The notes: generated by a model from the letters alone, not told the origin. DNA of 64,000 nt from Limnothrix sp. BL-A-16 (GCA_041937175.2 CP166615.1:3744001-3808000), one strand, 5' to 3'; numbered from the stretch's first letter, positions 3,162 to 63,226 are shown. Numbers and translations: made by a program.

Positions 3162-3271
3162 GGGCTAGCCTCAAATCTCCCAATTCCTTGCTCTGTTGGA
3201 AGGGGGCAAGGGGCTTAAGCCCCTTGTCTGTGGTCATTGTCGCCCCCTTCGGATCTCAGGCGAAACGAGTC
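3162..3271. repeat. Intergenic element carrying the perfect palindrome CAAGGGGCTTAAGCCCCTTG (3207-3226)
   Basis: Fills the gap between two convergent stop codons. Outer IR GAAGGGGGC/GCCCCCTTC. Termini are only weakly inverted. Confidence 0.7.
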
Positions 3272-4726
3272 CTAGACCTCAGCCAGTTCCCGCTCGGCCC
3301 GTTTGTAGGCTTCGTCGATCACTTCCGAGAGGGTCGGGTGAGCATGTACCACAAAGGCCAGATCCTTCACGGAACTGCGCTGGGCGATCGCCGTGGCCAC
3401 CTCTTGGATCAAGTCCGAAGCATGGATGCCAAACACATGCGCGCCCAACACTTCGCCCGTGTCCTTGCGGAAAATCACCTTGGCCAGGCCGTCGCCTTCG
3501 CCCTCCGCGATCGCCTTGGAGTTGCCCTTGAAATAGGTGCGGGTCGTGCCGATGCTGAAGCCTTCCGCTTCGCCCAGTTCCTTGGCTTGGGGTTCCGTCA
3601 AACCGACGAAGCTGATTTCGGGGTGGGTGAAGGCAGCGGCGGGAATGCTGCGGTAGTCCACTTCCCGATCGCGCCCGCAAATGTTTTCCACCACCACCAC
3701 GCCCTGGGCCGAAGCCGCGTGGGCCAGCATCATTTGCCCCGTTGCATCCCCGATCGCCCACAAATGCGGCACGGGTTCGCCATCCTTCAGCACCTGCATC
3801 TTGCCGTTGACGGGAATGAAGCCGGGGCGGTTGGTTTCCACGCCCACATTCTCCAAACCGATATTCGCCGTGGCGGGGCGGCGACCCGTGGCCACCAAGC
3901 AAGCATCGACTTCCAGCACGTCCACCACTTCCTTGGTTTTCGCGTCGGTCAGCTCGATCGTCACGGGCGCGCCGGGCGTAATCTTGGTAGCAAACACGCC
4001 CGTATAGGTTTCGATGTCGCGCTGATCGATCAGCGTCCGCTTGGCCACCTTGGCGATATCCGGATCAAAGCCCGGCATCAGTTGATCGAGCGCTTCGATC
4101 ATCGTCACTTCCGCACCCAAAGCGGTGTACACATCGGAAAATTCCAAACCGATGTAGCCGCTGCCGATGATCGCCACCCATTGGGGCACGGATTCCAGCC
4201 GCACCGCTTCATCGCTGGTAAAGACCGTTTTGCCATCCAGCTCGATCCCCGGTGGCACAAAGGGCACCGACCCGGTGGAAATCAACACGTTGCGGGCGCT
4301 GATCGTTTTGGTGATCGTGCGGTTGCCGTCGGCGGTGTTCACTTCCACCTTTTGGGGAGCCAGCAGTTTGCCCCAGCCTTGGATGATGTCTACGCCAATC
4401 CGCTTCAGGCTGTTGGTCAGGTCGCCTTGGATTTTGCCCACCAGGTTGGTGGCGTGGTCGGCGATCGCCTGGCGATCGAACTGCACGCCGCCCACTTGAA
4501 TTCCCATGGCCTTCAGGTGCGCCGCATTGCGGAGATCGCGCACCCGGCCGGAAGCCGCCAGCAGAGCCTTGGAGGGAATGCAACCCCGATTAACGCAGGT
4601 GCCGCCCATTTCGGCCGCTTCCACGATCGCGGTTTTCAGGCCGCAGGCGACGGCGTGCAGGGCTGCGCCATGGCCGCCAACTCCGGCTCCGAGGATCAAT
4701 AGGTCGTAGTCGAATGCTTGAGTCAC
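3272..4726 (-). CDS. lpdA: Dihydrolipoamide dehydrogenase
   Basis: GAGVGG FAD motif, [13 protein letters not shown] redox disulfide, [11 protein letters not shown] start at 4726 preceded by AGGAGG. Confidence 0.96.
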
Positions 4727-4851
4727 GCCCGCCTCCTGGGTTTGGATTGCTCTCAGAGTCCCCATTGTCCGGCGAAAGGGGCGATCGGGCAATTGCCACC
4801 CGGCCACCTCGGCTAGCTCAGGGCCTTAGCATCCAATCGGTTGCTCGATCG

Positions 4852-5376
4852 CTAGACAGTGGGATCCCGCTTCACAAAGGGCACGAGGTGCATCATAAAA
4901 TCCCGCTTCCCGATCGCAGCACCAGCCATCCGCAAAATGCCATAGGTTGTGGTGAGGTGAAAGTAGAAATTGGGCATCAAAAAATCATCCACATAGGCTA
5001 ATCCTGGTAACTCCAGCGAGAGGCCTTCTCCTAGGTCAATGCGATGAATTTCTGAGAGTTTGGCATCTCCGGCGTTGATATTGCTGAGTGATTCTTGGGT
5101 GGAGGTGATGTAATCCCGAGCAGTTTCCAGAGTGGTCACTTCGGGATTCAAGTTGCTAGCGGGTTGGTCAGCGCACCAAAGGGCAAAGTTACGCGGTTGA
5201 TTACAGGTAAAGGCGATTTGTGTACCAAAGGGCAGCATGTCGGGCGCAAGCCGAAGCTGAAAGAGGGCCGCCCGATCGGTTGCAAAGTGAGAATCGGCAA
5301 TGTCTAGTAAATGGCTTAAGGTTTCTAGGCGAGATTCAAAAATCGCCTGAAATCGCTTAATTTTGATGTTTTCCAT
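4852..5376 (-). CDS. DUF1993 family (DinB-like) protein
   Basis: RLAPDMLPFGTQI, PNFYFHLTTTYGILR...IGKRDF motifs. Confidence 0.85.
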   Translation of the reverse strand: MENIKIKRFQAIFESRLETLSHLLDIADSHFATDRAALFQLRLAPDMLPFGTQIAFTCNQPRNFALWCADQPASNLNPEVTTLETARDYITSTQESLSNINAGDAKLSEIHRIDLGEGLSLELPGLAYVDDFLMPNFYFHLTTTYGILRMAGAAIGKRDFMMHLVPFVKRDPTV

Positions 5377-5607
5377 GGTATTTGAAGCAATAGAGCAAAA
5401 GACCACAAACCTAAGCAGCCACAGATCAGGTGTTCTTTCAAAACCATATTAACTATAAATTTCAGTTTCTATCGTGGCAGTAATAGCCCGCAGGATCCAA
5501 GTTGCCCATCCACAACCCATAACCCAAGCGATGCGATCTCATTCAGGGAAAAGTAATGATTGCTTTTGAAATGAATAGCACCTCTCCTAGAGAGCAATGA
5601 GCATTAC

Positions 5608-6096
5608 TTACTCTGCTATTGACTCTCGATCGTCTCGGATCGTTTTTAGCCTAAGGTGATTTTCTACTGTTTTCAGCATTGTCATCACCATTTTCGCTTT
5701 TTTGATTGAATATCGTAATCCTTGAATGACCTCTTGCAGATAGTCTTCGCTCTGAATCATCTTACTTTGACTATGAGATGCAATTGAAATCCCTTCCATG
5801 TATTGGTAACCCAAGTGGATATAAATTCCTGGTTTAAAAGTTACTAATCGTGGATCTTGCTTGCCCTGTATAAGGGTGTACTCTTGCTTGAGTTCCAAGT
5901 ATTTTTTCCACGCTGATTCTAAAGCTTGGATATGAGATTCAACTTCAGAAGCATCAATGCGGATAGTATGAACTTTATATCTTAAATCAGGGCCAGCAAA
6001 AGCATAATTGATATGCCAGCCATCAGGATTTACAACTAATTGCCCCATACAAGGCAGAGTCTCAGAATATTCAAACTTTCCCATATTTTGCATCAT
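5608..6096 (-). CDS. Hypothetical protein (AT-rich insert)
   Basis: Open frame of about 160 aa. The longer ORF-track start runs through the REPIN-like repeat and is probably artefactual. Confidence 0.6.
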   Translation of the reverse strand: MMQNMGKFEYSETLPCMGQLVVNPDGWHINYAFAGPDLRYKVHTIRIDASEVESHIQALESAWKKYLELKQEYTLIQGKQDPRLVTFKPGIYIHLGYQYMEGISIASHSQSKMIQSEDYLQEVIQGLRYSIKKAKMVMTMLKTVENHLRLKTIRDDRESIAE

Positions 6097-6137
6097 GTGA
6101 AATAGACCTATTAATTTCGTAGCAGATGTTTGTACAA

Positions 6138-6221
6138 GTAGGTTGGGTTGAGGCACGAAACCCAACACCACTAACCTTGATGGTGATCGCGTTGGGTTTC
6201 GCAAGGCTCAACCCAACCTAC
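6138..6221. repeat. GTAG-type REP doublet (REPIN-like long hairpin)
   Basis: GTAGGTTGGGTTGAG-N3-CGAAACCCAAC...GTTGGGTTTCG-N5-CTCAACCCAACCTAC. Confidence 0.85.
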
Positions 6222-6363
6222 TAGCTCTACGGGATACTCAGGGGATGATCAAAGTGTAAGGTTTATGCCTATGTAAATGACACAGCTAAATCAGAGAATT
6301 AAAGTTGCAGCTATGCAACGCCTGGTTTATGATCTCGCAAGAGGGGAGGGAAACGAAAAATTC

Positions 6364-6873
6364 AGTAATGCCTTTGAAGTAATGATGAGTTATCAAGCGA
6401 TCGACTATGGGAAATTGTGGTGATCAATCAACTGCTAGCTCGTTGCTTCGTGATGGGAAAAAGACAGAGTTCGCCAAACCAAACGACAGATCCGCTAACG
6501 CAATGCATGACTTAATGATTGCCATGTAATTTATCAATCTGGTTTCTTGGTCCGCAGAGTACGACCACCTGCAACCGCCACATAAGATTCAATCCAGGAT
6601 TCGGAAACCTGCGCGACCCGCGCAATGGCTGCCTGGGAGAGGCGCTCTAGGAGCAGACGATCAATGAGCGCAATCTGCTCGGGTGTGACGCGTTTCTGAG
6701 TGGGGTGCTCAATGAACTGTCGGCCACAGGCTTTGCATTTGAAGCGTTGCTTGCCGTTGTGGATGCGACCATTTTTGACCGTGTGGCTGGATTGGCATTG
6801 AGGGCAAGCAGGCATGAACTGGAGTTATAGATTACTGCTGCCAGGCTAACATCATTACTCCACAGGCACTACC
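6364..6873 (-). mobile_element. Internally deleted IS1-family element (remnant)
   Basis: Imperfect terminal IRs AGTAATGCCTTTGAAGTAATGATG and the reverse complement of GGTAGTGCCTGTGGAGTAATGATG. InsA-like zinc ribbon CPQCQS..VKNG...KQRFKCKACGRQF (6534-6815). Degenerate InsB tail (RLVWRTLSFS) near 6450-6500. Confidence 0.85.
6534..6815 (-). pseudogene. IS1-family transposase N-terminal (InsA-like) fragment
   Basis: Zinc ribbon plus HTH (LSQAAIARVAQVSESWI). Catalytic domain deleted. Confidence 0.85.
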
Positions 6874-6877
6874 AAAA

Positions 6878-7030
6878 AACTAATCAAAATATCCTGGCTT
6901 TGTTCAGAACCGAATATTTTTTAAAGGCGTAATCGGTTTTAGGATTAATACAGAGCATCGGTTTTCCAGACAGCACTAGCGTCGCGATCGCTAGCAAAGT
7001 TAATGCCATGGTAACGATTTTTGGGCGATC
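6878..7030 (-). pseudogene. 5' fragment of an Rpn-family nuclease gene, paralogous to 47254-47400
   Basis: Near-identical to the 5' end and upstream region of the gene at 46422-47333. Cut off next to the IS1 end. Confidence 0.85.
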
Positions 7031-7213
7031 GCTGATCTAGCAAGACATCAGACCTATTAAGTGTGTATGAATTACTCCTAGCCCATGGCTCATGCAATCG
7101 CCCGTTGCGCCGCTTGAAGTTGACCCCATGTTTAATGACTAGAACATCGATCGGCGATCGATTAGGACAGCCCGATCGCCGATCAATGCTTCTAGGTGAG
7201 TGGCTGTTCTACC

Positions 7214-7807
7214 CTAGCTGCCGCGATGGCGCTGGGCGATCATGGCAATCCGCTGACCGTACTTTTCCGCCGTCAGTCGATCGCCCGGGTGAACGATCGC
7301 TTCACCACCATTGGGATTCAGATCGCTTTGACCCATCACGCCCAAAAACGACCCGAGACGGTTGATACCATCATCCTTCCCCGCATACTGGCTGGGCATT
7401 TCGGCCGCCCCCACCCAAATCATGCCGTGCTGGGCCGCATTAATCGCCATGTATAGCAGCGTGCCCTGCTTATCACCACTGGGGGAAGCCGAGTGGGTGA
7501 ACCCGCCAGCGATCTTGTCCTTCCACTGTTGGGCAAACCAAGCTGAGCTGGCCGCATCCACAAACGCCTTGAACTGGGCCGCCACGCCGCCCATATAAGT
7601 GGGCGACCCAAACACGATCGCATCCGATCGGGTCAAAGCATCCAGCATCTCCGGATCTTTCCAACGGCCCTCGGTAATTTGCGCCCCCGTAATCCGCAGC
7701 AACTCGGCCGTCACACCGTCCACTTGGCTAGCTCCCCGCGCCACGGCCTCCGCCATCAGATGGGTGTGCCCGGATCCCGAAAAGTAGACCACTGAGATCG
7801 TCGTCAT
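7214..7807 (-). CDS. Flavodoxin-like NAD(P)H:quinone oxidoreductase (WrbA family)
   Basis: YFSGSGHT, FGSPTYMGGVAAQFKAF, SGDKQGTL. Confidence 0.9.
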   Translation of the reverse strand: MTTISVVYFSGSGHTHLMAEAVARGASQVDGVTAELLRITGAQITEGRWKDPEMLDALTRSDAIVFGSPTYMGGVAAQFKAFVDAASSAWFAQQWKDKIAGGFTHSASPSGDKQGTLLYMAINAAQHGMIWVGAAEMPSQYAGKDDGINRLGSFLGVMGQSDLNPNGGEAIVHPGDRLTAEKYGQRIAMIAQRHRGS

Positions 7808-7950
7808 AAAAACCTCAATACGGACTGGAAACGAGCGGCCTCGGCCCGTAATGCTGATCCTAGAAGTCGCTACCCACTAAAGTAAAGTAGGAACCTAAAA
7901 GTAACTAGCTTCCTTTTTGCGCCCAAAATTGAGTCTGGAAGTGCCTGCCC

Positions 7951-8337
7951 ATGCCTCGCCCCTCCAAAGAAGTGAAGCGCTGCCCCGTCAGCTTTTTGAT
8001 GGATATCTTGTCCGGCCCCTGGACGCTCTACCTGCTGTGGGTGGTAGCCACGGAGGGCCCGATCCGCTTTGGAGCTTTGAAGCGACAAGTGGAGGGCATT
8101 TCCACCAAAGTGCTCACGGAGCGGCTGCGGCTGCTGGAGCGTGAGGGGCTAATTTATCGTCACTACGAAGCGACCGTGCCGCCCCAAGTTACCTATGGCC
8201 TGACCGATCGGGGTTCGGAACTGGTGCAGGTGTTGGATCTGCTCGGTGACTTGGCCCAGCGCTGGTATGGTGATGGCGCGATCAGCCCGCTGAACCCCAA
8301 CTCCGAGACCGGCGCAATTGTCGTTGACTATCCCTAG
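7951..8337 (+). CDS. HxlR-family winged-helix transcriptional regulator
   Basis: CPV..MDILSGPWT, RFGALKRQVEGISTKVLTERLRLLE, VPPQVTYGLT. Divergent from the WrbA-like gene. Confidence 0.92.
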   Translation: MPRPSKEVKRCPVSFLMDILSGPWTLYLLWVVATEGPIRFGALKRQVEGISTKVLTERLRLLEREGLIYRHYEATVPPQVTYGLTDRGSELVQVLDLLGDLAQRWYGDGAISPLNPNSETGAIVVDYP

Positions 8338-8471
8338 GAATCGATCGCTCGACTGCCCCGGTTAGCGATCGCGCAAGTTGGGTACAACAGGCGATGATTT
8401 TACCAAGTTTGTAAAGCCCTATAATTTCAGAAACAGGCATGAGTTATTCATTTCTAATCTAATTTTGATCC

Positions 8472-10175
8472 ATGGCTCGGATTAATCTGCTAGATACTCG
8501 AACTGCAACTTTCGGGGATTTAATGGGCAATGGGAAGATTTACCGAGTTCCAATTTTTCAGCGCGATTATTCTTGGACTGAAGAAAACTGGGAAGATCTT
8601 TGGCAAGACATTCTAGGGTTATATGACGATCCCTCAGCCAGCCACTACATGGGGGCGATCGTTCTGCAAACTTCCAGTACCTCTGACCAAGAATTCACCA
8701 TTATTGATGGTCAACAAAGAATTGCAACGATCAGTATCATTGTGATCGCTGTGATTGAAAAGATCCAAGTCCTAGTTAAACAAAATCAGCAAGCGATAGC
8801 TAATCACGAACGACAAGAAATTTTGAGACAAACTTATCTAGGTAATCGAGATCCTATTTCTCTTCACTATTCGAGTAAACTTTTTTTAAATGAAAATAAT
8901 AATGATTTTTACCAGAGTAATTTAATTAATTTAAGAGAGCCTTGGAATCTTCGCTCAGTCTCTCAATCCAACCAATTACTTTGGAAAGCTTTTCAGTATT
9001 TTTCAAGCCAATTGACACAGCTAAAGGGTATTGTCTATAGCGGTGAAAATTTGGCAGAATTTCTGACTAAAATCATTGTTCAAAGACTTTTGTTTATTCA
9101 AATCAACGTCCAAGATGAATTAAACGCCTACACTGTATTTGAGACTCTAAATGCTAGAGGCATAGAACTGAGTTCTACAGATTTACTCAAAAATTATTTA
9201 TTCTCCCTTTTTCGAGGCCCAGATGACTTGAATGAAGGCCAGCGGCGCTGGCGCGTGATTGCCAATACAGTGCAGATGGAAAATATTCCTGAGTTTCTGC
9301 GCTACTATCTCAGTCTCCAGCGACCCTGGGTTAAACGTGAACGCCTCTTTAAAGCAGTTCGAGAATCAGTTCAGGATTCTCAACAAGCCTTTGACCTACT
9401 AGATCAGCTTGAACGCTATAGCAGCCTATTTGTTGCTCTTGGCAATGCTCAGGATGATTTTTGGCGCGAAACGCCTGCGAATCGTACCTACATTCGAGAA
9501 TTAGAGCTGTTCCGGGTGAAGCAAGCTTACCCGATTCTTTTTGCGGCTCATAGTCAGTTTTCTGATGCGGACTTCACGCGATTATTGAAGCTGATTAGTG
9601 TGTTGTCATTTCGATATACGGTGGTTTGTGGGTTGAATCCCAGTGAACTAGAAAAGCTATATAACCAAGTGGCGATCGCGATTCAAAGCTCAGAAATTAC
9701 AACTCCTAAACAAGTCTTTGAACAATTGCGATCAGTTTATGTTTCGGATGAGAAATTTTCACAAGATTTTGAGCTGCTAACGGTTTCTACTCGGGGACAA
9801 CAGAAAAAGTTGGCTCGTTATATGCTGTGGAAACTCGAAAATGATGCAGCGAATCAAGAGATTATTGAAGAGAGTTTTTCGATCGAGCATATTTTGCCCG
9901 AATCACCGGATCAGGATTGGCAAGACAATTTCACCGATGCTCAAATGATTGACATGGTGTACCGACTGGGCAATTTAACCCCTTTGGAACCCAATCTCAA
10001 TCGCCAAATTGGCAATCAGCCTTATGTGGTTAAACGGGAAACTTATGCCACTAGTGGTTATCAATTGACGCAAGGGATTGTGGCTGAAGAATGGACTCCG
10101 AATGCGCTGGCTAATCGACAAAAACAACTGGCCAAGCGAGCGGTGCATATCTGGCGATCGGACTTTGCGACCTAG
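8472..10175 (+). CDS. DUF262/DUF1524 GmrSD-like (type IV, modification-dependent) restriction nuclease
   Basis: VPIFQRDYSW, IIDGQQR, FETLNARG, C-terminal SIEHILPE...RLGNLTPL (HNH-like). Confidence 0.88.
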   Translation: MARINLLDTRTATFGDLMGNGKIYRVPIFQRDYSWTEENWEDLWQDILGLYDDPSASHYMGAIVLQTSSTSDQEFTIIDGQQRIATISIIVIAVIEKIQVLVKQNQQAIANHERQEILRQTYLGNRDPISLHYSSKLFLNENNNDFYQSNLINLREPWNLRSVSQSNQLLWKAFQYFSSQLTQLKGIVYSGENLAEFLTKIIVQRLLFIQINVQDELNAYTVFETLNARGIELSSTDLLKNYLFSLFRGPDDLNEGQRRWRVIANTVQMENIPEFLRYYLSLQRPWVKRERLFKAVRESVQDSQQAFDLLDQLERYSSLFVALGNAQDDFWRETPANRTYIRELELFRVKQAYPILFAAHSQFSDADFTRLLKLISVLSFRYTVVCGLNPSELEKLYNQVAIAIQSSEITTPKQVFEQLRSVYVSDEKFSQDFELLTVSTRGQQKKLARYMLWKLENDAANQEIIEESFSIEHILPESPDQDWQDNFTDAQMIDMVYRLGNLTPLEPNLNRQIGNQPYVVKRETYATSGYQLTQGIVAEEWTPNALANRQKQLAKRAVHIWRSDFAT

Positions 10176-10198
10176 CATGGCCCATTGAGCAACAGGTT

Positions 10199-10873
10199 CT
10201 AGGACTCGATCGCCTGGAATTGTTCCATCAGCCAACGGATTGTGTCTGCGTCGTCGTTGCGATCGGTGCGTTCCAGAGCTTCCGCGACGATCGCCATTGA
10301 CAGCCCCGGCAAAACTTGGGATTCCTCGATCGCCCGGCTGCCCCGATCGGCGATCGCAAAGGCAATCACCTGGCGCTCATTGGCGTTGATCACCCAATAT
10401 TCCCGCACGCCCAACTGTTCATAGAGCAAGCGTTTGGGGCCGAGATCGTCGTTGAAGCTGCTGGCTCCCACTTCCACCACCAAGTCCGGCGGCCCAAACC
10501 GATCAAGGTCGATCGGCTCATTGCCCTTGGGTGGCCACTCAGGGCGATCGCCCACATAGACCGACAAATCGGGCTGGCATTCTTGAACGCCGGTTTTCCG
10601 CAAGCTCACATTCAAGTAGCGAACCACTCGCATCTGCCGTACCAGGGCATAGAACGCCACAATATCGGTGGGCGGCAGGTTCTGGCGAGCATGGTCATGG
10701 CCTAAAGGTGTCATCTCAAAGCGCATCCGGCCGTTGTAGTAGTAGCTGCGGCGATCGGGTGGGGCGGCAGGGTCGTTGGCGATCGCGAGGAATTCGTCCC
10801 AGGTGGCGGGCAACCATTGATCCAGCGGCGGATCTGTAATGGTGGCTGGTGGTGGCGTTGTGGCAAGGGTCAT
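10199..10873 (-). CDS. Uma2-family PD-(D/E)XK endonuclease
   Basis: QPDLSVY, PPDLVVEV, KRLLYEQLGVREYWVIN, SQVLPGL. Start MTLATT at 10873. Confidence 0.9.
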   Translation of the reverse strand: MTLATTPPPATITDPPLDQWLPATWDEFLAIANDPAAPPDRRSYYYNGRMRFEMTPLGHDHARQNLPPTDIVAFYALVRQMRVVRYLNVSLRKTGVQECQPDLSVYVGDRPEWPPKGNEPIDLDRFGPPDLVVEVGASSFNDDLGPKRLLYEQLGVREYWVINANERQVIAFAIADRGSRAIEESQVLPGLSMAIVAEALERTDRNDDADTIRWLMEQFQAIES

Positions 10874-11063
10874 GGGAGCGTCCCCCAGCGATCGGGCGGT
10901 GACTGTTTCCAGTGTAGCGAGACGGTTTGATCGCAACCGGTCAACAGGGCTAATCAGCAGTTGATGACCATTGGTTGATGACCATTGATGGCTATTTGGC
11001 CCCAATCGGCTAAACTACGGTTAGTCGATCGGAAAACCGGCTTATTAAGCCATCAGATTAGCC

Positions 11064-12727: not shown

Positions 12728-12763
12728 GGTGTTTACCCTGTCGAACCGCTAGAGAGTATCTGA

Positions 12764-12894
12764 GAGGATGTCTGAAAAGCCAAAATTGCTACTCTGTACG
12801 CCCCAGAGATTGATGTAGACAAGATGCTCAAGCCCCTTGTTCCTATGACAATTAATCTTCAGCCCGTGTTGAAAGATAATTCTCAGACATCCTC
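12764..12894. mobile_element. MITE family A, copy 1 (131 bp)
   Basis: 12-bp perfect TIR GAGGATGTCTGA, flanked by a 3-bp direct repeat TGA (12761-63 and 12895-97). Internal CAAGATGCTCAAGCCCCTTG. Inverted paralogue at 16155-16300. Confidence 0.9.
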
Positions 12895-13044
12895 TGAGAA
12901 TTATCTTGGGAAATGTGTTCTTATTGATAACTTTGAAATTGATAATTTTGACAAGGATGGATTTTAAAGACAAAAGTGCCTTCTTTTGGAAAAGGCTGGG
13001 CGATCGGGCGGTAGCGTGGTTCTGCGGGGCGATTGGATTGGGAT

Positions 13045-15896: not shown

Positions 15897-16154
15897 GGGC
15901 CAAGCAAACTCCATCAAAACCATCACATCCCAGCAGCCTAACGGACAGGGCGATCGAACCTAGGTATTCTGGCCAACATTGCCCTTGATGAGCACTCGGG
16001 CAGTTTGAGCAGTCAGGGATCGTAGGCTAAATGGGTTGATTGGGCGCAATGGCACTGCAAAATCACGCGGCAACGTTTCAGTTCGATCGGGTCAATCAAC
16101 GGATGATTACAAACAGTTAATTGCAATTGCAAACGAATGATTTCCATTGGCTCA

Positions 16155-16300
16155 GAGGATGTCTGAGAAGTATCTTTCAATATGGGCTGAAGATTAATTG
16201 TCGTAGAAGGGGCTTAAGCCCCTTGTCTACGCTTAAGCCCCTTGTCTACATCGATCTCTGGGGCGTACAGAGTAGCAATTTTGGCTTTTCAGACATCCTC
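16155..16300. mobile_element. MITE family A, copy 2 (146 bp, inverted relative to copy 1)
   Basis: TIR GAGGATGTCTGA, TCA direct repeats (16152-54 and 16301-03). Internal AAGGGGCTTAAGCCCCTTG with a 19-bp tandem duplication. Confidence 0.9.
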
Positions 16301-16336
16301 TCAGGCGGTGGTGTTGGCAAGCTGGAGACTTTGACC

Positions 16337-31001: not shown

Positions 31002-31017
31002 ATTAATTTGCAGCTTA

Positions 31018-31159
31018 GGGTCTGTCGTCATTTCGCCCAAAACCCTAGATCTGCCGTTAGCGGATTGTGTGAGACAAGGGGCTTGAGCATCTTGTTACGA
31101 CGACTGGGGCACGGAAGATCAACCGTTTCAGCATCACCTCGAAAAATGACGACACCCCC
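31018..31159. mobile_element. MITE family B, copy 1 (142 bp)
   Basis: TIR GGGTCTGTCGTCATTT / AAATGACGACACCCCC, flanked by TA on both sides. Internal CAAGGGGCTTGAGCATCTTG. Inverted paralogue at 63085-63226. Confidence 0.9.
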
Positions 31160-31377
31160 TAGAGCCGGTGGTATGGTTATCGTTGGCTCCAATAGGCTTG
31201 GTTCACTCAGCATAATTAACCTGATCGATCTAACCCGATCAATCAGGTTGGGGATTAATGATTCACGACGGATGAATCACGGACGCTGAATTATGATTCA
31301 CACCTCGATTGTGAATACCCCAAACCATTGCCCAGGAGTCGATTCAACTAACTCAATCCCTTCAAACTAAATTTCCT

Positions 31378-32615: not shown

Positions 32616-32718
32616 AGGACGGTGGTTGGCTGGCTGGTTTCATGCCCCCAACTGATCGCCACAGCCCACTAGAATCAGCCCAGCGCAATCAAGGGCGAGC
32701 GCCATCAACCAAACTCTA

Positions 32719-32860
32719 GTAGCGCGGCTGCCTTAATTCACTGGGTCAGACTATATGACTGTTACCGTCACCTGATCGTTAGGCAGCAAGGGGCTTAAGC
32801 CCCTTGTTACCACGACTAGCCCTGCAACTTTGACCTAATGCATTATGCCTGTCGCGCTAC
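32719..32860. mobile_element. MITE family C (142 bp)
   Basis: Ends (CTA)GTAGCGCG...CGCGCTAC(TAG), with an imperfect IR extending about 30 bp. Perfect CAAGGGGCTTAAGCCCCTTG at 32787-32806. Confidence 0.8.
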
Positions 32861-32939
32861 TAGCTAGCCCCGAAGACCACGCTAAGAATACTGCCATGGC
32901 TTCCAAGATTTAAGCTGCTTTAAATTGCTGAGACCTGAG

Positions 32940-33012
32940 TGGAGGTTAGCGGACTCGAACCGCTGACATCCTGCTTGCAAAGCAGGCGCTCTACCAACTG
33001 AGCTAAACCCCC
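32940..33012 (-). tRNA. trnA: tRNA-Ala(UGC), CCA not encoded
   Basis: GGGGGTTTAGCTCAGTTGGTAGAGCGCCTGCTTTGCAAGCAGGATGTCAGCGGTTCGAGTCCGCTAACCTCCA. Anticodon TGC, G3:U70 pair. Confidence 0.97.
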
Positions 33013-53796: not shown

Positions 53797-53834
53797 GCGT
53801 TTTCACCTAGTCGAATTTCAGGACGTTGAATCAA

Positions 53835-55356: not shown

Positions 55357-55857
55357 ATGACGCGATCGCCCCGTTCGGTTTGCCCCGTTCCCGAAGAACA
55401 ACAACCCCTCAACGAGTTTTCCGAGTTGAAGGAGGCTTGGCTATTGTCTTGGCCCACCTTGCCGAGCCGAGGGTTGGTGATCAAGCTGCTGTGGATTTGG
55501 GCCTGGAGCTGGTTGGTGGTGGGGCCCGTGGCCGCCGCCAGCTTCCCCCTCAAAAAAGACCTGGCCCACTTTCTGTTGGGGGCCGGCGGCGGGGCTGTGT
55601 TGCCCGTGTTGTTGGTGTTGGCGCGGATTTATTCGGCCTGGAGCTATGTGGGCCGTCGCCTGTTCAGCGAAAAAATTATCTATGAAGAATCCGGCTGGTA
55701 TGACGGCCAGGTCTGGGAAAAGGCTCCGGAAATGTTGGCTCAGGATCGGCTAGTGGTTTCCTATGAGGTGAAGCCCACGCTCGATCGGCTCCGGCGGTTG
55801 GTGCTGATTTTGGCAGGAACCCTGCTGGCGGGGGCGGCCGTTTGGGGCCTGGTCTAG
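55357..55857 (+). CDS. CGLD27 (DUF1230 / Ycf36) family protein
   Basis: CPVPEEQQPLNE, YEESGWYDGQVWEK. Confidence 0.9.
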   Translation: MTRSPRSVCPVPEEQQPLNEFSELKEAWLLSWPTLPSRGLVIKLLWIWAWSWLVVGPVAAASFPLKKDLAHFLLGAGGGAVLPVLLVLARIYSAWSYVGRRLFSEKIIYEESGWYDGQVWEKAPEMLAQDRLVVSYEVKPTLDRLRRLVLILAGTLLAGAAVWGLV

Positions 55858-56063
55858 GGCCGGTTCGGTTAACCTGGATGGGGAACAGTGGGCGCGATCG
55901 AACTCCCTGTTGTTACACGGCCCAGACCCGTTCAAGACCCGTTCAAGACCGACGGAACAATGAAAAAATAGGCTAATTGCCGAAGCTGATCTTAAATTGC
56001 GGTGAACAATCGCAGTTTTTGACGGAATTAATGTCTAACTAAACAAGTTTCAAACCAGTTTTT

Positions 56064-57017
56064 ATGACTCGGGGCAAATTAACACGCGCGGCCGATATTG
56101 AAATTCGCTTGCTGCGAGAAGGGTTGGTGGAATCCACCCACATGGTGCAAGCAGTGGCCTGCGATGATCGGGGGCGCTTGTTGATGTTGGCGGGCGATTC
56201 CGGCATCTCCAGCTTTGCGCGATCGGCTCTGAAACCCTTCCAGGCCCTGGCTGTCGTCGCTTCTGGAACCTTGGATCACTTCGGCCTCAGCAATCGCGAC
56301 CTGGCGATTATGTGCAGTTCCCATCAGGGAGACATTGCCCAAGCCCGCCAAGTGTTCAACATCCTTTGGCATTGCGGCATTGAACCCAGTGCCCTCCAAT
56401 GCCCCATTCCCCAGGGCAAATCCAGCGCCCTTCAGCACAACTGCTCTGGCAAACATGCGGGGATGTTGGCCATGTGTCGCCACGGCAATTGGTCGATCGG
56501 GGACTATCTGCAATATTCCCACCCCGCCCAGCAAGCCGTTTCTAGCGTCATTGGCGAACTGCTCGGGATTCCTGCTCAAGAATTCGTTGTGGCCCGCGAC
56601 GATTGCGGCGCACCCACCTATCTGATGCCCCTTCAGGAGTTGGCCACCCTGTTTGCCAAGCTCACATCCGGTGACAATCTGCAATTGGAGCGCATCGTGC
56701 GGGCCATGACCGGCTATCCGGAACTGATTTCCGGCCATGGTGGTTTTGATACGGATTTGATGCGGCTGACGGGGGGCGAAATTGTCAGCAAAGCAGGAGC
56801 TGAAGGAATGCAATGTATGGGCCGCGTGGGCGAGCGGCTGGGTGTTGCCATCAAGGTGACGGACGGAGCTAAACGGGCTAAATATGCCGCTGCGATCCAC
56901 ATCCTGAAGCAGTTGGGCTGGATTGGGCCCGATGTGTCGGAAGCGCTGGAAGAAAAATATGTGCAGCTCAATGCCTTTAAGCGTTTGGAAGCGATCGGGG
57001 AGTTAAAAATCGCCTAG
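56064..57017 (+). CDS. L-asparaginase II family protein
   Basis: RSALKPFQA, CSSHQG, HNCSGKHAGML, DDCGAP, SKAGAEG. Confidence 0.92.
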   Translation: MTRGKLTRAADIEIRLLREGLVESTHMVQAVACDDRGRLLMLAGDSGISSFARSALKPFQALAVVASGTLDHFGLSNRDLAIMCSSHQGDIAQARQVFNILWHCGIEPSALQCPIPQGKSSALQHNCSGKHAGMLAMCRHGNWSIGDYLQYSHPAQQAVSSVIGELLGIPAQEFVVARDDCGAPTYLMPLQELATLFAKLTSGDNLQLERIVRAMTGYPELISGHGGFDTDLMRLTGGEIVSKAGAEGMQCMGRVGERLGVAIKVTDGAKRAKYAAAIHILKQLGWIGPDVSEALEEKYVQLNAFKRLEAIGELKIA

Positions 57018-57040
57018 CCCTTGAGTGGATGTTGATTCGC

Positions 57041-57538
57041 TCAACCACTCAATTTCTCCTCTGAATCGACATCTTGATCGGCATATTCGATCGGCAGGGT
57101 GATCGCCAACTCCCAGGAAAAGGGCGGCTCGATCGGGAACGTCTTCAAAGGTAATTTTGTTTCCACAAAAGCTTGCTCGCGGGCTTGGGGATAGGCCTGC
57201 TCGATCGCGCAGGGCAGCCAGGGTTTCAAGCTGGGATTTTCAGTGAGTAACCGTTGAATTTCCCGACGTGCGGAACGAATGCTAAATACCCAAGAATTCG
57301 ATCGCTTACGGGGTTGAAATTGCCACTTCAAAAGATGTAGATAAAGCCGCTCCAATTGGCTCACCAAAGCTCGCTTTTCCGATCGCCCCAAGCTTTCAAC
57401 CTCTTCTAACAAATTCTCCAGATCCAATTGATCAAACTGCCCCGATCGCAACAGTTCGGCCTGTTGTTGCACCCAGCCGTAATAGTCGCTGTCGTAGGTG
57501 ATCGGGGCGATCAGCTCGATAGTCGTCTGTATTTCCAT
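57041..57538 (-). CDS. DUF29 family protein
   Basis: YDSDYYGW, LDLENLLEEVESLGRSEK, HLLKWQFQP, NPSLK. Confidence 0.92.
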   Translation of the reverse strand: MEIQTTIELIAPITYDSDYYGWVQQQAELLRSGQFDQLDLENLLEEVESLGRSEKRALVSQLERLYLHLLKWQFQPRKRSNSWVFSIRSARREIQRLLTENPSLKPWLPCAIEQAYPQAREQAFVETKLPLKTFPIEPPFSWELAITLPIEYADQDVDSEEKLSG

Positions 57539-57549
57539 GCGGTGGCATC

Positions 57550-58008
57550 CTAATCCTGAACAACAGATTCGATCGGCAGGGTGATCGCCAATTCCCAGGA
57601 AAAGGGCGGCTCGATCGGGAATGTATCGATCGGTAAGCCCGTTTCCCGGGCGGCTTTTTTGCGGGCCTGCTCGTAACTCTTGGGAATCCAGCTTTCTAAA
57701 TCACGCCGAAAACTAGGATTATCTTCCAGTAATTCCAAGATTTCATCCCGCGCATCTTCAATTGAGAAAACCCAGGAGTTCGATCGCTTCTGGGGTTGGT
57801 ATTGCCATTTCAGCAAATGCCAATAGAGCCGGACAATTTGACTGGTTAAGGCTCGCTTTTCCAATCGCCCCAAGCTTTCAACCTCTTCTAACAAATTCTC
57901 CAGATCCAATTGATCAAACTGCCCCGATCGCAACAGTTCGGCCTGTTGTTGCACCCAGCCGTAATAGTCACTGTCGTAGGTGACGGGGGCGATCGTTTTG
58001 GAAGTCAT
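57550..58008 (-). CDS. DUF29 family protein (tandem paralogue)
   Basis: Same motifs as the neighbour. Start MTSKTI at 58008. Confidence 0.92.
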   Translation of the reverse strand: MTSKTIAPVTYDSDYYGWVQQQAELLRSGQFDQLDLENLLEEVESLGRLEKRALTSQIVRLYWHLLKWQYQPQKRSNSWVFSIEDARDEILELLEDNPSFRRDLESWIPKSYEQARKKAARETGLPIDTFPIEPPFSWELAITLPIESVVQD

Positions 58009-58093
58009 TGGCTCAAACTCCTCAGCGCCTTGGCGATCGAGAAATCGCAATTCTGCCCAGGGTCGCTGTTGTTATTGTGCAAGATCCAGCACA

Positions 58094-58251
58094 GTGGCGG
58101 CACAGTCCGTGAAAGGTCATCAAACCCGCAAAACCCTTGCCCAAGAACCCTTCTACCCTGCTAGACAAGGGGCTTAAGCCCCTTGCTCCCTGACGATTGG
58201 GTAACAGCCAAGCTCCCGACGGAACCCGCAATTTCCGGACTGTCACGCCAC
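58094..58251. mobile_element. MITE family C-related element (158 bp)
   Basis: Ends (CA)GTGGCGGCACAGTCCG / CGGACTGTCACGCCAC(TA). Perfect CAAGGGGCTTAAGCCCCTTG at 58166-58185. Confidence 0.75.
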
Positions 58252-58350
58252 TACCGTTCCAACCGCTCGAACTGGCCCGGCTGTCCCGTTGCGCTGATAT
58301 CCTGAAAAGCATCAAGACTGAATCATAAGAATTTCCCTTTTTCGCCCGCC

Positions 58351-60396
58351 ATGTCCGTTACTGCGCCGCCCCAAGCCCGAGACCCGATCGCCTTTCCGCT
58401 GACGGCGGTGATCGGCCAAGAGTCGATCAAGATGGCTTTGCTGTTGGCGGCGATCGATCCGGGCCTGGGGGGCGTGGCGATCGCCGGTCGGCGCGGCACG
58501 GCCAAATCGGTGATGGCCCGGGCGATCCATGCCCTGCTGCCCCCGATCGAAGTGGTAGACGGCTCCCTCAGCAACTGCGACCCAGACGCGCCCGATCGCT
58601 GGGAAGACGGCTTGCAATTTCACGGCGAAGTGCCCCGGAAAGTCATCCCCGCGCCCTTTGTGCAAATCCCTCTGGGTGTGACCGAAGATCGGCTCCTGGG
58701 TTCCGTGGATGTGGGCCAGTCCGTGAAGCGCGGCGAAACGGTGTTTCAGCCCGGTTTGCTGGCGGAAGCGAACCGGGGCGTGATGTATGTCGATGAAATC
58801 AATTTGCTCGATGACCAAATCGCCAACCTGCTGCTGGGATCCCTGAGCGAAGGGCGCAACCAAATTGAGCGGGAAGGAATCAGCTTTGCCCACCCCTGCC
58901 AAGCCCTGTTGATTGCCACCTACAACCCGGAAGAGGGGCCGCTGCGGGAACACCTGCTCGATCGAATCGCGATCGCCCTGTCCGCCGATGGAGCCTTGGG
59001 CTTGGATCAGCGGGTGGAAGTGGTCGATCGGGCTGTGGGCTATGCCCGATCGCCCCAGGACTTCCTTGGGCAATACGCCGAAGAACTGGACGGCCTGAAA
59101 ACCCAAATCCTGTTGGCGCGTGAATGGCTGAAGGACGTGACCATCAGCCGCGAGCAGTTGGAATATTTGGTGCAAGAGGCGGTACGCGGCCGGGTGCAGG
59201 GCCACCGGGCGGAACTGTTTGCGGTGCGCGTGGCCAAGGCCCATGCGGCCCTCGATGGGCGGACGGCGGTGAATGCCGATGATTTGCGGGTGGCGGTGGA
59301 ATTGGTGATTGTGCCCCGGGCCACGGTGATTGAAACGCCGCCGGATGAGCAACAGCCGCCGCCGCCCCCGCCGCCGCAACAACAACCGGAAGCGGAACAG
59401 GAACAGGACGACGAAACCGACAACGAAAACGAAGACCAAGACGAAAACGAAGACGAGGATCAACCGGACGAGCCGCCCGCAATCCCCGAGGAATTCGTGT
59501 TCGACCCGGAAGGGGTGGTGATGGATCCGTCGGTGCTGCTGTTTGCCCAAACCACGGCCCAGCGATCGGGCGGTAGCTCCGGCAGTCGATCGATCATCTT
59601 CTCGGACGATCGGGGGCGCTACATCAAACCCGTGTTGCCCCGGGGCCCCGTGCGCCGGATTGCCGTCGATGCCACCCTCCGATCGGCCGCGCCCTACCAA
59701 AAAGCCCGCCGCGCCCGGGCCGCCGCTGCGGGCGAAACGGGTCGCCGCGTGTTCGTGGAAGAAAGCGACGTGCGGGCCAAGCGCCTGGCCCGCAAGGCTG
59801 GAGCCTTGGTCGTATTTGTGGTGGATGCGTCGGGATCGATGGCCCTGAACCGGATGCAGTCGGCTAAGGGTGCGGTGTTGCGGTTGCTGACGGAGGCTTA
59901 CCAAAACCGCGATCAGGTGTCGCTGATTCCCTTCCGAGGTGAGCAAGCGGAGGTGCTGTTGCCGCCCACGCGATCGATTTCGGCGGCCAAGCGACGGCTG
60001 GAAACCATGCCTTGCGGCGGCGGTTCACCTTTGGCCCACGGCTTGACCCAGGCGGTGCGCGTGGGAACCAATGCCCGCCAGTCGGGGGATGTGGGGCAAG
60101 TGGTGATTGTGGCAATTACGGACGGTCGGGGAAATGTGCCCCTCGCCCGATCGCTCGGCCAGCCCATGGAGCCGGACGAAAAACCCGATGTGAAGCAAGA
60201 GCTACTAGACATTGCGGGCAAAATCCGTGCCCTGAACATCAAGCTGCTGGTGATCGACACCCAAAGCAAATTCGTTTCGACGGGTTTCGCCAAGGAAATG
60301 GCAGAAATGGCGGGCGGCAAGTATTACCACCTGCCGAAAGCGACCGATCGGGCGATCGCCGAAATGGCCCGAGGGGCGATCGCCGATCTGAAATAG
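58351..60396 (+). CDS. chlD: Magnesium chelatase subunit D
   Basis: [16 protein letters not shown], Pro/acidic linker, vWA DASGSM..TDGRGN. Confidence 0.96.
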
Positions 60397-60410
60397 GGGC
60401 GATCGCCCGG

Positions 60411-60977
60411 TTACGACTCTCGACGCTTCAGCCAGCTAAACAACTCGTCTACGGTTAACGCCAAGGTCAGTTCCGGCAACACCGGCAGGCGATCGCTTCC
60501 CGATAACTCCAGCGGCAACGCATCGGGCAAAAACACCACCACCACCCGATCGCGCGGCATCACCAACCAGCCCAACTGGCCCCCGTGGCGCAAGCAGTGC
60601 AGCAGGTTTCGCACCACGCGGGTTTCTCCCTGGGCTGGCGACAGGATCTCGATCGCCCAGTTGGGAGCCACCGTCATCCCAAAGTCCGAAATTTCCCCCG
60701 CCTCATCGATCGGCACATCGGTTTCGCGGACAACGATTAAGTCCGGCACGATCGAGCGGCCGCCAAAGGTGCAGCGCATCTCCGTTAGCGCTTCCCAGGG
60801 GGAATCAATGGCATTAATGGCCCCACCCAATCGAATTTGTAGACGGCTGTGTTTTCCACCAGGCATCGGTTTTTGGATCGGCCCTTGATCGTGAAACTCC
60901 CAGGCCGGTGAGTCATCAATATCCGGCTGTTGCAAAAACTCGGCCAGCGATAAACCTGAAGCGATCGTGGCAACCAT
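60411..60977 (-). CDS. Uma2-family endonuclease
   Basis: SPAWE..QKPMP..HSRLQ, EMRCTFGGRSIVPD, APNWAIEILSP. Confidence 0.9.
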   Translation of the reverse strand: MVATIASGLSLAEFLQQPDIDDSPAWEFHDQGPIQKPMPGGKHSRLQIRLGGAINAIDSPWEALTEMRCTFGGRSIVPDLIVVRETDVPIDEAGEISDFGMTVAPNWAIEILSPAQGETRVVRNLLHCLRHGGQLGWLVMPRDRVVVVFLPDALPLELSGSDRLPVLPELTLALTVDELFSWLKRRES

Positions 60978-61203
60978 GATCAAATTGCTACTGTTCGATG
61001 GGTCGGGTCGATCCCTCAATCATGACGGAGAATCGATCGACTCAGCGTTGTGCTAGGCGATGATGATAAACCCGAATCGTCTGGTTTTATGGTAGATGGG
61101 GCACAGCAAAGCAGCCATTGCAGCATCAATCCCATTCCAGAATTTGCAATAGAATCCAATCAACAGAAATGATCTCGCGGCGCTGTTCGCGGGCTGCGTG
61201 CCT

Positions 61204-61782
61204 ATGACGGTTTCGATCGCCCCGATCGCCACCCTGGCGGAATTTCTCGATCGCCCCGATCTCGACGATTCGCCCGCTTGGGAATATCTCGATGGCCGGG
61301 CAGTCCAAAAGCCCATGCCCAAGTTTCGCCATTCCCTGCTGCAAAAACGACTGATTCGGGCGATCGACGCGGTGGGCGATCGCTACACGGCTATGCCGGA
61401 ATTGCGCTGTACCTTTGGCGATCGCTCGATCGTCCCCGATGTGGCGGTGGTTGCTTGGGAACGGGTGGTGCTGACGGATGACGGTGAGCCGATCGATCAG
61501 TTTTTAGCCGCTCCAGATTGGATGATTGAAATTCTGTCCCCAGAGCAATCAACGACCAGAGTGCTAGATAAGCTATTGCACAGTTTGCAATTTGGTAGTC
61601 AGTTGGCTTGGTTAGTTGATCCCCAGGATCGATCTGTTTTGACCTTGTTGCCCGATCGCTCACCCTTAATCGGTCGGCGGGCAGATCCCTTGCTTTGCTT
61701 ACCGGACTTGCCCCTGACCCTGACGGCAGAGCAGATTTTTGGTTGGCTGAAGGTGGGTTCACAACCGGAGGAAACTGCGTGA
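61204..61782 (+). CDS. Uma2-family endonuclease (divergent paralogue)
   Basis: SPAWEY..QKPMP..HSLLQ, PELRCTFGDRSIVPD, APDWMIEILSP. Confidence 0.9.
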   Translation: MTVSIAPIATLAEFLDRPDLDDSPAWEYLDGRAVQKPMPKFRHSLLQKRLIRAIDAVGDRYTAMPELRCTFGDRSIVPDVAVVAWERVVLTDDGEPIDQFLAAPDWMIEILSPEQSTTRVLDKLLHSLQFGSQLAWLVDPQDRSVLTLLPDRSPLIGRRADPLLCLPDLPLTLTAEQIFGWLKVGSQPEETA

Positions 61783-62660
61783 CCGTTGCGCCCCATCCAA
61801 CGCCCGAGACCGATCGCACCTGGCATGGGTCGATCGATTTGCAGTTTGCGCGATCAGGCGATCGCACCCAGGTGCAGGCCCAAACCCGATCGCCCCTGCA
61901 ATTTCAGCGGCCTTTCTATCCCGAGGGGCCGGCGGTTTGCCATGCGGCCATGTTGCATGTGGCGGGGGGCATGGTCGGGGGCGATCGCCTGTCGATTTCG
62001 TTGGATTTGGCCCCGGAAACGGCGGCCCTGGTGACGACGGTTTCGGCGGCCAAGATCTATGGCAGTCGGGGGCGATCGCTGATCGATCCGGCCGGGCGGT
62101 TTGCCCAACAGTCGGTGCGGGTGCGGGTGGGCGAAGGGGCGCACCTGGAATGGTTGCCCCAGGAGACGATTATTTTTGATGGCGCACTCTATGAGCAGCG
62201 ATCGCGCATTGACTTGGCGGCGGGGGCCAGTTGGTTGGGCAGCGAAATTGTCCGACTGGGGCGCACGGCCGGCGGTGAGCGCTACGGCTGCGGCGAGTGG
62301 CGATCGCGCCTGGAAGTGTGGCAGGGCGATCGGCTAGTGTGGCTCGATCCGCAGCGGATTGATGCGACCGACCCGACCACCCGCGACGGTTCCCACGGGC
62401 TGGCGGGCTGCCCGATCGTTGGGACGCTGGCTTGGATTGGTGAGGAATTGCCCAAGGAGCTAATCACGGAAGCGCGATCGCACCTGCCCCAAGGCGATCG
62501 GGTCGATTGCGGCATCACACGGCTACAAGCCGGGCTGCTTTGTCGCTATCGGGGCCATTCGGTCAGCGAGGCCCGGCGCTGGTTCTGGCAGGTGTGGGAT
62601 TTGGTACGCCGTCACCAGCGTGATCGTCCCGCGATCGTCTCCCGGTTTTGGCCCCTCTGA
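61779..62660 (+). CDS. ureD: Urease accessory protein UreD
   Basis: PLQFQRPFYPEG, LHVAGGMVGGD, TTVSAAKIY, LEWLPQETIIF. GTG start overlaps the Uma2 stop (GTGA). Confidence 0.93.
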   Translation: MTVAPHPTPETDRTWHGSIDLQFARSGDRTQVQAQTRSPLQFQRPFYPEGPAVCHAAMLHVAGGMVGGDRLSISLDLAPETAALVTTVSAAKIYGSRGRSLIDPAGRFAQQSVRVRVGEGAHLEWLPQETIIFDGALYEQRSRIDLAAGASWLGSEIVRLGRTAGGERYGCGEWRSRLEVWQGDRLVWLDPQRIDATDPTTRDGSHGLAGCPIVGTLAWIGEELPKELITEARSHLPQGDRVDCGITRLQAGLLCRYRGHSVSEARRWFWQVWDLVRRHQRDRPAIVSRFWPL

Positions 62661-62771
62661 GCGTTCCCAACCCCGAAACCCAAAATCTTCGCAATCAATC
62701 GGTGGCCTGCTAGACAAATCGCGGTACAACCAACAACAGAGTATTGGCAAGATGACCTGCGCGATCGCCCT

Positions 62772-63074
62772 ATGCAACTCACGCCCCAAGAAAAGGACAA
62801 GCTGCTGATTTTCACCGCCGCTCTGTTGGCTGAGCGCCGCAAAAATCGCGGACTGAAGCTCAACTATCCGGAGGCCGTGGCCTATCTGACGGCGGCCATT
62901 TTGGAAGGGGCGCGAGACGGAAAAACGGTGGCGGAACTGATGGCGGAGGGGACAACGCTGCTCACTCGGGATGAGGTGATGGAGGGGGTGGCCGAGATGA
63001 TCCACGATGTGCAGGTGGAAGCGACATTTCCCGACGGCACGAAATTGGTGACCGTGCATGACCCCATTCGTTAG
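62772..63074 (+). CDS. ureA: Urease gamma subunit
   Basis: [34 protein letters not shown]. Confidence 0.98.
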
Positions 63075-63084
63075 TAGGGGCGTA

Positions 63085-63226
63085 GGGGGTGTCGTCATTT
63101 TTCGAGGTGATGCTAGAACGGTTGATCTTCTGTGTCCTAACCGTCGTAACAAGATGCTCAAGCCCCTTGTCCCTCACGATCCGCTAACGGCAGATCTAGG
63201 GTTTCGGGTTAAACGACGACAGGCCC
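63085..63226. mobile_element. MITE family B, copy 2 (142 bp), inserted in a GTAG REP palindrome
   Basis: TIR GGGGGTGTCGTCATTT / AAACGACGACAGGCCC, TA on both sides. Inverted paralogue of 31018-31159. Confidence 0.9.

Follow-up and report, generated by a model that had tools for sequence, protein, structure and literature searches.

Repetitive extragenic palindromes (REPs) were reported by Tobes and Pareja in 2006 to serve as targets of insertion sequences (ISs), and IS1397 reportedly inserts into palindromic units within bacterial interspersed mosaic elements (BIMEs). The small dispersed repeats (SDRs) SDR1-8 of Nostoc punctiforme, reportedly described by Elhai et al. in 2008 (Genome Res 18:1484), are said to be units of 20-30 nt, some of them hairpins, which often lie inside mini-transposons or tandem repeats, are confined to heterocyst-forming relatives and were recently mobile. 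Here we describe a perfect 20-nt palindrome, CAAGGGGCTTAAGCCCCTTG (P), which recurs in a 64,000-nt stretch of the 4.56-Mb genome of Limnothrix sp. [quoted passage not shown] The precedents are the use of REPs as insertion targets, documented in PMC3733652, and QMITE2 of Coxiella burnetii, presented in PMC10969869 as a MITE with a REP-like palindrome that is targeted by IS1111 and whose truncated copies look like bare REPs; SDR5 is mentioned in PMC4390886. What appears to be new is that several MITE families share one identical centre.

P resembles REPs, BIMEs and REP doublets forming hairpins (REPINs) in being a short GC-rich palindrome with hundreds of extragenic copies, mostly downstream of genes, and it resembles REPs and BIMEs in being single or clustered and in having a transposable element that lands specifically in the palindrome. 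Unlike REPs and REPINs, P does not lie beside a gene resembling the REP-associated tyrosine transposases (RAYTs), is a perfect palindrome and is the same 20-mer across many genera; unlike the case of REP targets, the element entering P is a TA-duplicating MITE that carries P itself. QMITE2 is likewise a MITE containing a REP-like palindrome that another element targets, but it is one family in one genus, whereas at least three families in G000, and others elsewhere, share one identical central palindrome. The Nostoc SDRs, as reported, are the nearest known concept: the P unit is also dispersed in unrelated contexts that include MITEs and tandem repeats, although no recent gain of the bare unit was seen for P, and P is always central in its MITEs. 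The BoxC/PIT/TM_ECO repeat, according to Holder et al. 2015 (PMC4666352), is an intrastrand triplex motif that is GC-rich, highly conserved and intergenic; certain cyanobacteria have it in abundance, and it is associated with unstable genomes. It shares with P the lack of a known means of spread, and the P unit GGGGG-CAA-GGGG-CTTAAG-CCCC has a G-G-C block order; however, the sequence is another one, and P is a two-arm palindrome with 4 possible triads, compared with 9-10 in TM_ECO (Table 1 of PMC4666352). An identity of P with BoxC was rejected on comparison by eye with that table, the triplex motif requiring three blocks of 9-10 nt able to form triads. In the literature searched (supplements not covered) we found no description of one palindrome centring several unrelated MITEs, in keeping with the original prediction, made from the window alone, which likewise knew of no such description. 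Neither the 18-mer nor the 14-mer core of P occurred in the text of any searched paper, the 10-mer matches listed were unrelated, and a Microcystis genome paper names MITE families and gives no sequences for them in its text.

The original prediction had placed seven copies of P in the window, and all seven were recovered there, each with no more than 3 mismatches, the limit applied to all counts unless stated otherwise; 0.01 copies were expected by chance, and 0 of 100 shuffles reached 7. Genome-wide, G000 carried 512 copies, of which 326 were exact and 61, 37 and 88 had 1, 2 and 3 mismatches, respectively. One recurrent allele, P3 (CAAGATGCTCAAGCCCCTTG or its reverse strand), accounted for 68 of the 88 three-mismatch copies; the perfect form is designated P0. 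The copies were mostly extragenic, with 16 of the 512 inside genes on a crude gene map (codon-usage-scored open reading frames of at least 90 codons; 3,024 genes, 77% of the genome). The P hairpin folds, its folding z-scores (-1.4 to -3.8) adding little information, and a scan of the window at Rfam gathering scores gave a tRNA as sole match and none at P. The cyanobacterial octamer GCGATCGC occurred in 5,209 copies in G000, compared with ~69 expected, which marks the host as a cyanobacterium. These results indicate that the shared-palindrome observation is real and general, and extends far beyond the window.

Single-linkage clustering of whole flanks lumped 416 copies because the arms recombine, and it was replaced by clustering the 100 nt on each side of every P copy separately, reading outward from P. 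Six large arm types were obtained, pairing as three families, A, B and C (Table 1). A further 117 copies had both arms unique (solitary copies). In the others, either a single arm could be recognised, another P lay close by, or the two arms came from different families, as in 4 copies that combine arm 0 with arm 3. The ends located in window copies were GAGGATGTCTGA for A, TAGGGnnTGTCGTC with TA flanks for B and CTAGTAGCGCG for C; the target duplication was 3-bp TNA for A and TA for B, and C had CTAG/TA flanks. The elements are short, non-coding and multi-copy, with terminal inverted repeats, target duplications and empty sites in relatives, as in MITEs. The central claim of the original prediction, that one central palindrome is shared by MITE families whose ends and target duplications differ, was thus supported in G000, and the same sharing was seen in other cyanobacteria with further families.

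We then compared the copies with those of G002, a sister species of ~90% identity. Among the G000 copies whose flanks mapped to 721 kb of G002, 45 of 77 were absent in G002, while reverse mapping found 1 of 32 G002 copies absent in G000 and 31 shared; therefore, G000 has gained copies. Recent gains of P copies are MITE insertions. In the window, both family A elements, one with TGA duplicated at 12761-12763 and 12895-12897 and the other with TCA duplicated at 16152-16154 and 16301-16303, had clean empty sites in G002, and the family B elements were absent from the syntenic G002 block (31018-31159) and at the G002 orthologous site (63085-63226). These results show that P multiplies in G000 by riding in three foldback MITE families, each specific to the genus, whose dyad centre it occupies.

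Outer arms and ends were alike within families only (z 5.5-7.7; between families z ≤ 0.5), and the inner 26 nt were alike across several families (A2-B1 z 5.6, B0-C5 4.7, A3-B1 2.8, B1-C6 2.9), the part shared across families being P plus ~12-26 nt of inner arm. The statement that the bodies lack cross-family similarity therefore held for the outer arms and failed for the inner 26 nt of some arms, and the bodies did not align end to end as one diverged family. When profiles of the six arms were searched against G000, 853 arm copies were recovered. A full P adjoined arm 0 in 164/257, arm 1 in 144/169, arm 2 in 116/165, arm 3 in 116/170, arm 5 in 35/47 and arm 6 in 34/45 cases; most remaining arms were truncated, adjoined a degenerate P, or met a half P with a family B end in front of it. 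No P-less member of A, B or C was found among the 41 residual arm rows examined (those of arms 2, 3, 5 and 6; the 19 and 9 rows of arms 0 and 1 lie outside this set), which consisted of degenerate palindromes, partial tandem copies or split palindromes, none with the arms joined without P. A search for MITE copies lacking the core thus ended with nearly every A, B and C arm abutting a full, degenerate or MITE-split P.

Family B prefers the central TTAA of P as its target, duplicating TA. The family B consensus continued past its TA into AGCCCCTT, and a half P followed 106 of 244 arm-0 ends and 38 of 157 arm-1 ends, compared with a background of 0.6% of all TA sites on a given side. Both halves of P flanked 25 of 112 complete B elements, one half flanked 29 and none 58. 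At C1:3646671 and C1:3413514, G002 had an intact P where G000 had CAAGGGG..TA-[B]-TAA..CCCCTTG, and the converse was observed at the orthologues of C1:1744682 and C1:1631754, where the G002 copy contained a B-like element. B was also found in the P of A elements (3 copies, exact layout) and of one C element, and it can nest in its own kind because it carries P itself. The original prediction had pictured a tiny hairpin that repeatedly colonises existing MITEs. The direction shown here is the opposite: B integrates into P, and therefore MITEs colonise the hairpin, so that of this interpretation the shared central palindrome stands and the colonising unit is not supported. Copies of a resident DDE_Tnp_4-type IS were also seen near these elements, one inserted 3 nt after a P (C1:280498) and another interrupting a family C arm (C1:3693344).

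The state of P differed between closely related elements. For 14 A and 19 B elements, the nearest neighbour with arms at least 93% identical carried another P state, including pairs with 110/110 identical arm bases that differed by the three clustered changes, and near-identical copies also carried P3 in opposite orientations. The variant half of P3 was always paired with a canonical half (68/68). These results imply a directed, templated exchange confined to the 20-mer. In orthologous pairs the G000 copy was usually the perfect one. A solitary P3 at C1:1817937 was unchanged in both species; therefore, alleles do not simply decay in place, at a steady rate, into the perfect form. Neither the orientation of the alleles nor that of the asymmetric flanks was clearly linked with the weak GC-skew halves, and a replication-strand effect was rejected. 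One stem variant with two compensating changes, C8>T and G13>A, was present in 10 perfect copies, compared with 3 half-changed ones.

P is also a rearrangement breakpoint, yielding half elements, chimeric arms and short tandem arrays. One-armed elements were common (58 chains of P0 with a single arm), and short P arrays recurred in G000 with periods of ~70-93 nt and in the cyanobacterium G013 with a 73-nt period. At C1:1795504, G000 had P with one C arm and G002 a solitary P with unrelated DNA, synteny being kept on both sides, as would be expected if a C element had inserted and two adjacent P copies had then recombined with loss of the DNA between them. Five-copy P arrays with a 73-77-nt period were observed at G013:C1:1422231-1422546, in another cyanobacterial family. 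Tandem repeats beginning with half of P adjoined many solitary copies in both G000 and G013, and the family A element at 16155-16300 contained an internal 19-bp tandem duplication (16212-16230/16231-16249) composed of half P plus TCTAC. The idea that P halves act as IS ends was tried and rejected, as the distances between outward-facing halves had no peak from 0.3 to 4 kb.

The solitary copies formed an asymmetric unit of ~28-31 nt, AGA-P-CCCC(C). In the 117 copies, the three positions before P were A in 109, G in 97 and A in 112, and the four positions after P were C in 82-96, these counts being somewhat inflated since the copies were oriented by those very positions. Unlike REPs, P has no general GTAG/CGTC tag; the solitary copies read NAGA, 24 of the 117 having T at -3, and GTAGA is regular only in family A. 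At more than 25 loci, ~29-31 nt at 100% identity were the only sequence in common. These units are old. Where a G002 orthologue was available, 14 of 19 solitary sites were present, and the other 5 differed by large or complex changes, two of them being MITE insertions in G002; no clean gain of a bare unit was detected among these 19 sites and the 32 mapped G002 copies, 31 of which were also in G000.

We next placed the 117 solitary copies on the gene map. The results revealed 40 in convergent, 59 in tandem and 9 in divergent intergenic regions and 9 inside genes, compared with 14% convergent, 58% tandem and 28% divergent among intergenic bases (chi-square ~54, 2 df). Flanking 3' ends lay at a median distance of 80 nt (n = 139), and 5' ends at one of 155 nt (n = 77). 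On this crude map, the copies had no orientation bias relative to neighbouring genes. As intrinsic terminators they lacked a U-tract, and a simple terminator scan missed the copy at 3207; T-rich tails next to P were seen only in another genome, of lower GC.

Beyond G000, P (≤ 1 mismatch) was present in 12 of 31 relatives and went undetected in 4 genomes from one genus of the same family. In a sample of 301 genomes of the class, 59 had the exact 20-mer, which was present in 30 of 144 genera, and a reversed control pattern gave 0 everywhere; all 20 sampled genomes of one genus carried it, and G042 had 182 copies. Contexts in other genomes were read from fetched loci, 5 per genome, and there P lay at the centre of other repeated elements with inverted-repeat ends (Table 1), the part common to different genomes being limited to P and 2-3 nt. 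Of the G000 families, B and C were detected within the same genus only, in G001 and G002, and not in G003, G042 or G013 (E 1e-6). These sequence comparisons suggest that P is older and more widespread than the MITE families. The exact 20-mer was also found in at least 80 named genome records; among the matches listed, 64 were cyanobacteria of many orders and 16 had another or no taxon label. Among these matches, records of Anaerolineae (4), Chloroflexia, Binatia, Planctomycetota, Treponema, WOR-3, Deltaproteobacteria and Leptospirales carried the exact 20-mer, and five viral contigs carried 7 copies; ~1 non-cyanobacterial exact match was expected by chance in the whole collection. The non-cyanobacterial matches may reflect horizontal spread or binning error.

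Mobilisation by a RAYT or an IS200-type enzyme, a lead raised by the original prediction, was rejected. G000 has a single Y1 transposase gene, scoring 56 bits with the RAYT model NF047646 (cut-off 80) and 22 bits with the IS200 model. P was absent within 6.5 kb of this gene and from all 13 RAYT-like loci (the gene and 12 relatives), and close homologues were not found in the P-bearing G001, G003 and G011 and were found in the P-free G008, G023 and G024, so that gene presence does not track P. The final 33 codons of this gene, together with the sequence that follows them, form four tandem repeats with ~510-590-bp spacing (G000:C1:1722190-1724403), and G002 has a similar repeat pair. The window also contains an 84-nt element (6137-6226) with GTAGGTTGGGTTGAG ends and two inverted hairpins, which resembles a GTAG-tagged REP doublet and has ~11 copies in G000 and dozens of matches in G001 and G002. 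This element is a likelier RAYT client than P, and it was not found within 4.5 kb around the RAYT-like gene.

The window elements, the three families and the P contexts in other genomes are listed in Table 1. The solitary copy at 3207 is conserved at its G002 orthologous site with a loop change, and the arms of the copies at 3207 and 58166 had no other genomic match beyond ~30-50 nt around P. The unit at 58166 belongs to a 158-bp stretch (58094-58251) that occurs nowhere else in the genome and ends in 16-nt terminal inverted repeats; G002 has the unit at the orthologous site, with a single change in P. This inverted repeat was the best among the solitary copies, yet its score of 13.0 was below the 99th percentile of the null, 13.5. 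The original prediction had assigned this copy to a variant, C-prime, of family C; it is a single locus because its arms match nothing else in the genome. Accordingly, of six copies said to lie in MITEs, five lie in multi-copy MITEs (12820, 16206, 31075, 32787 and 63150). A minus-strand tRNA gene lies at 32940-33012, 77 nt from the family C element.

Table 1. Elements carrying P in the window (window positions), MITE families across G000, and contexts of P in other genomes
Element	Location	P (position or state)	Arms, ends and flanks
Solitary unit, GGGGG + 20-mer + TCT	3202..3229	exact 20-mer, 3207-3226	flanks unique beyond ~30 nt
Family A MITE, 131 bp	12764..12894	allele P3, 12820-12839	arm types 3 + 2
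Family A MITE, 146 bp	16155..16300	P, 16206-16225	ends located
Family B MITE, 142 bp	31018..31159	P3 (opposite-strand form), 31075-31094	TA at 31016-31017 and 31160-31161
Family C MITE, including CTAG flanks	32716..32863	P, 32787-32806	absent from syntenic G002 block
Solitary unit, AGA + 20-mer + CTCCC	58163..58190	58166-58185	
Family B MITE, 142 bp	63085..63226	P3, 63150-63169	TA at 63083-63084 and 63227-63228
Family A, 87 two-armed copies	G000	P0 64, P3 13, P3 inverted 7, other 3	arms 2 + 3; ends TTTTCAGACATCCTC, then TnA
Family B, 121 two-armed copies	G000	P0 88, P3 22, P3 inverted 8, other 3	arms 0 + 1; ends GACGACAggCCC-TA
Family C, 25 two-armed copies	G000	P0 13, P3 0, P3 inverted 11, other 1	arms 5 + 6; ends GCGCTACTAG
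One P-centred family	G017, 5/5 loci		ATACC... ends
Two P-centred families	G042		TATAGC... ends; TACAGC..TTCC ends
P-centred element	G187		CTAGTAC ends
One P foldback and solitary copies	G217		solitary copies flanked AGAA...TTCT shortly after stop codons
P in another repeat	G013		

We consider it about an even bet (probability roughly 0.5) that P is the core of a high-copy, REP/SDR-like passenger module that was built into MITEs at their birth and is homogenised by a templated process. Each family would have been founded with P already in place, P entering through recombination or template switching at a pre-existing copy, and P, being self-complementary, would couple any two transposon ends like a universal joint. 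The module might persist because foldback MITEs benefit from a strong hairpin at their centre, or because such a hairpin at least does no harm at gene 3' ends, and gene conversion or strand switching at the hairpin could keep the 20-mer uniform on a template. Several observations weigh against this account. No founder, P-less relative or autonomous partner was found for any family, and the birth step is therefore purely inferential. End pairing of the families gave no transposase-bearing element of 0.8-2 kb in G000, and the ends of the resident IS630-type (3 copies, ends TACAGCC...) and DDE_Tnp_4-type (9 copies, ends AGACCTCTTGCACGAAT) ISs are unlike those of A, B and C, so that an autonomous IS with matching ends, which the original prediction had proposed to look for, was not found in a search confined to the IS630-type and IS5/DDE_Tnp_4-type families. 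An origin of MITEs by inverted duplication centred on P gained no support, private inverted repeats at solitary copies scoring 7.2 on average, compared with 7.1 for the null (4/117 above the 95th percentile, 0 above the 99th). A perfect palindrome made from the P3 variant half is absent genome-wide (0 with ≤ 1 mismatch); therefore, simple hairpin self-correction of P3, which should yield it, is insufficient and was rejected. Moreover, 8 of the 10 copies of the C8>T/G13>A variant are solitary at unrelated loci, which fits dispersal of a small unit, and in orthologous pairs P in G002 is no better conserved than its flanks. Finally, the account leaves the exact conservation of the 20-mer unexplained; that the same 20-mer is kept across many cyanobacterial families points to a sequence-specific factor.

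Such a factor is the starting point of a reading that we regard as rather unlikely, the second alternative of the original prediction, in which P is a selected functional site, either bound by a dimeric protein or acting as a terminator or transcript-stabilising hairpin, and the MITEs that carry it are tolerated or favoured. It would account for the exact 20-mer in 30 of 144 sampled genera, the convergent enrichment (40/108 versus 14% of bases) and divergent depletion (9/108 versus 28%) of solitary copies, their median of 80 nt to a flanking 3' end, the A-rich and T-rich runs that flank P just after stop codons in a lower-GC genome, the excess of compensated over half-changed stems (10 versus 3) and the G000 copies that are perfect where the G002 orthologue has drifted. 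However, we know of no protein that binds P, the copies have no orientation bias relative to transcription and no U-tract, the copy at 3207 is missed by the terminator scan, P and its flanks drift at the same pace in G002, a 3'-end bias is usual for any tolerated mobile repeat, and the central position in MITEs is left unexplained. That position would follow if P were instead, as in the first alternative of the original prediction, an autonomous, SDR-like micro-element that inserted at foldback tips and colonised the founder of each family, as its sharp borders suggest, with only P plus 2-3 nt common to families of different genomes and ~29-31 nt identical at more than 25 unrelated loci. The compensated variant at 8 unrelated solitary loci, the asymmetric P3 in both orientations relative to identical arms and the frequent location of P inside short tandem repeats, as reported for SDRs, are consistent with it as well. 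We nevertheless judge it distinctly improbable: solitary sites yielded no clean gain (14 of 19 shared with G002, the 5 differences complex), 31 of 32 mapped G002 sites are present in G000, no P-less family member was seen and P is always central in the families, and no enzyme candidate was found, the RAYT-like loci being without P. The sharing would require no movement of P at all if A, B and C were one old MITE superfamily that diverged everywhere save at its centre and changed its ends. The likeness of the inner 12-26 nt of some arms between families, and that of the two arms of B, and of C, along their outer parts, agree with such common descent, but it is highly unlikely, since the outer arms and ends have no cross-family likeness, the target duplications differ (TNA versus TA), P would have stayed identical while all else diverged beyond recognition, and P is far more widespread than the families, occurring elsewhere in unrelated ones with which only P plus 2-3 nt is shared.

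A single 20-mer links at least three MITE families in G000 as well as additional families of other genera; it is itself a preferred integration site, and its concerted evolution does not depend on its carriers. This also accounts for some of the intergenic instability of these genomes, since P is the point at which half elements, nested elements and short arrays break. The finding bears on two open questions, the origin of new bacterial MITE families and the spread of very short repeats, and provides a system suited to asking whether a central hairpin has a function in bacterial MITEs, how TA-inserting elements choose their targets and how dispersed palindromes are homogenised. More tentatively, P might be a phylum-wide "universal apex" cassette with its own concerted evolution, which is required for, or strongly promotes, the birth and spread of MITEs under any transposase, serves as a homing site for TA-inserting MITEs and is acted on by a sequence-specific factor. 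If so, a factor acting on the hairpin would explain both the exact conservation and the allele switching, and P and its MITEs would reinforce each other and so shape the intergenic DNA of cyanobacteria at large.

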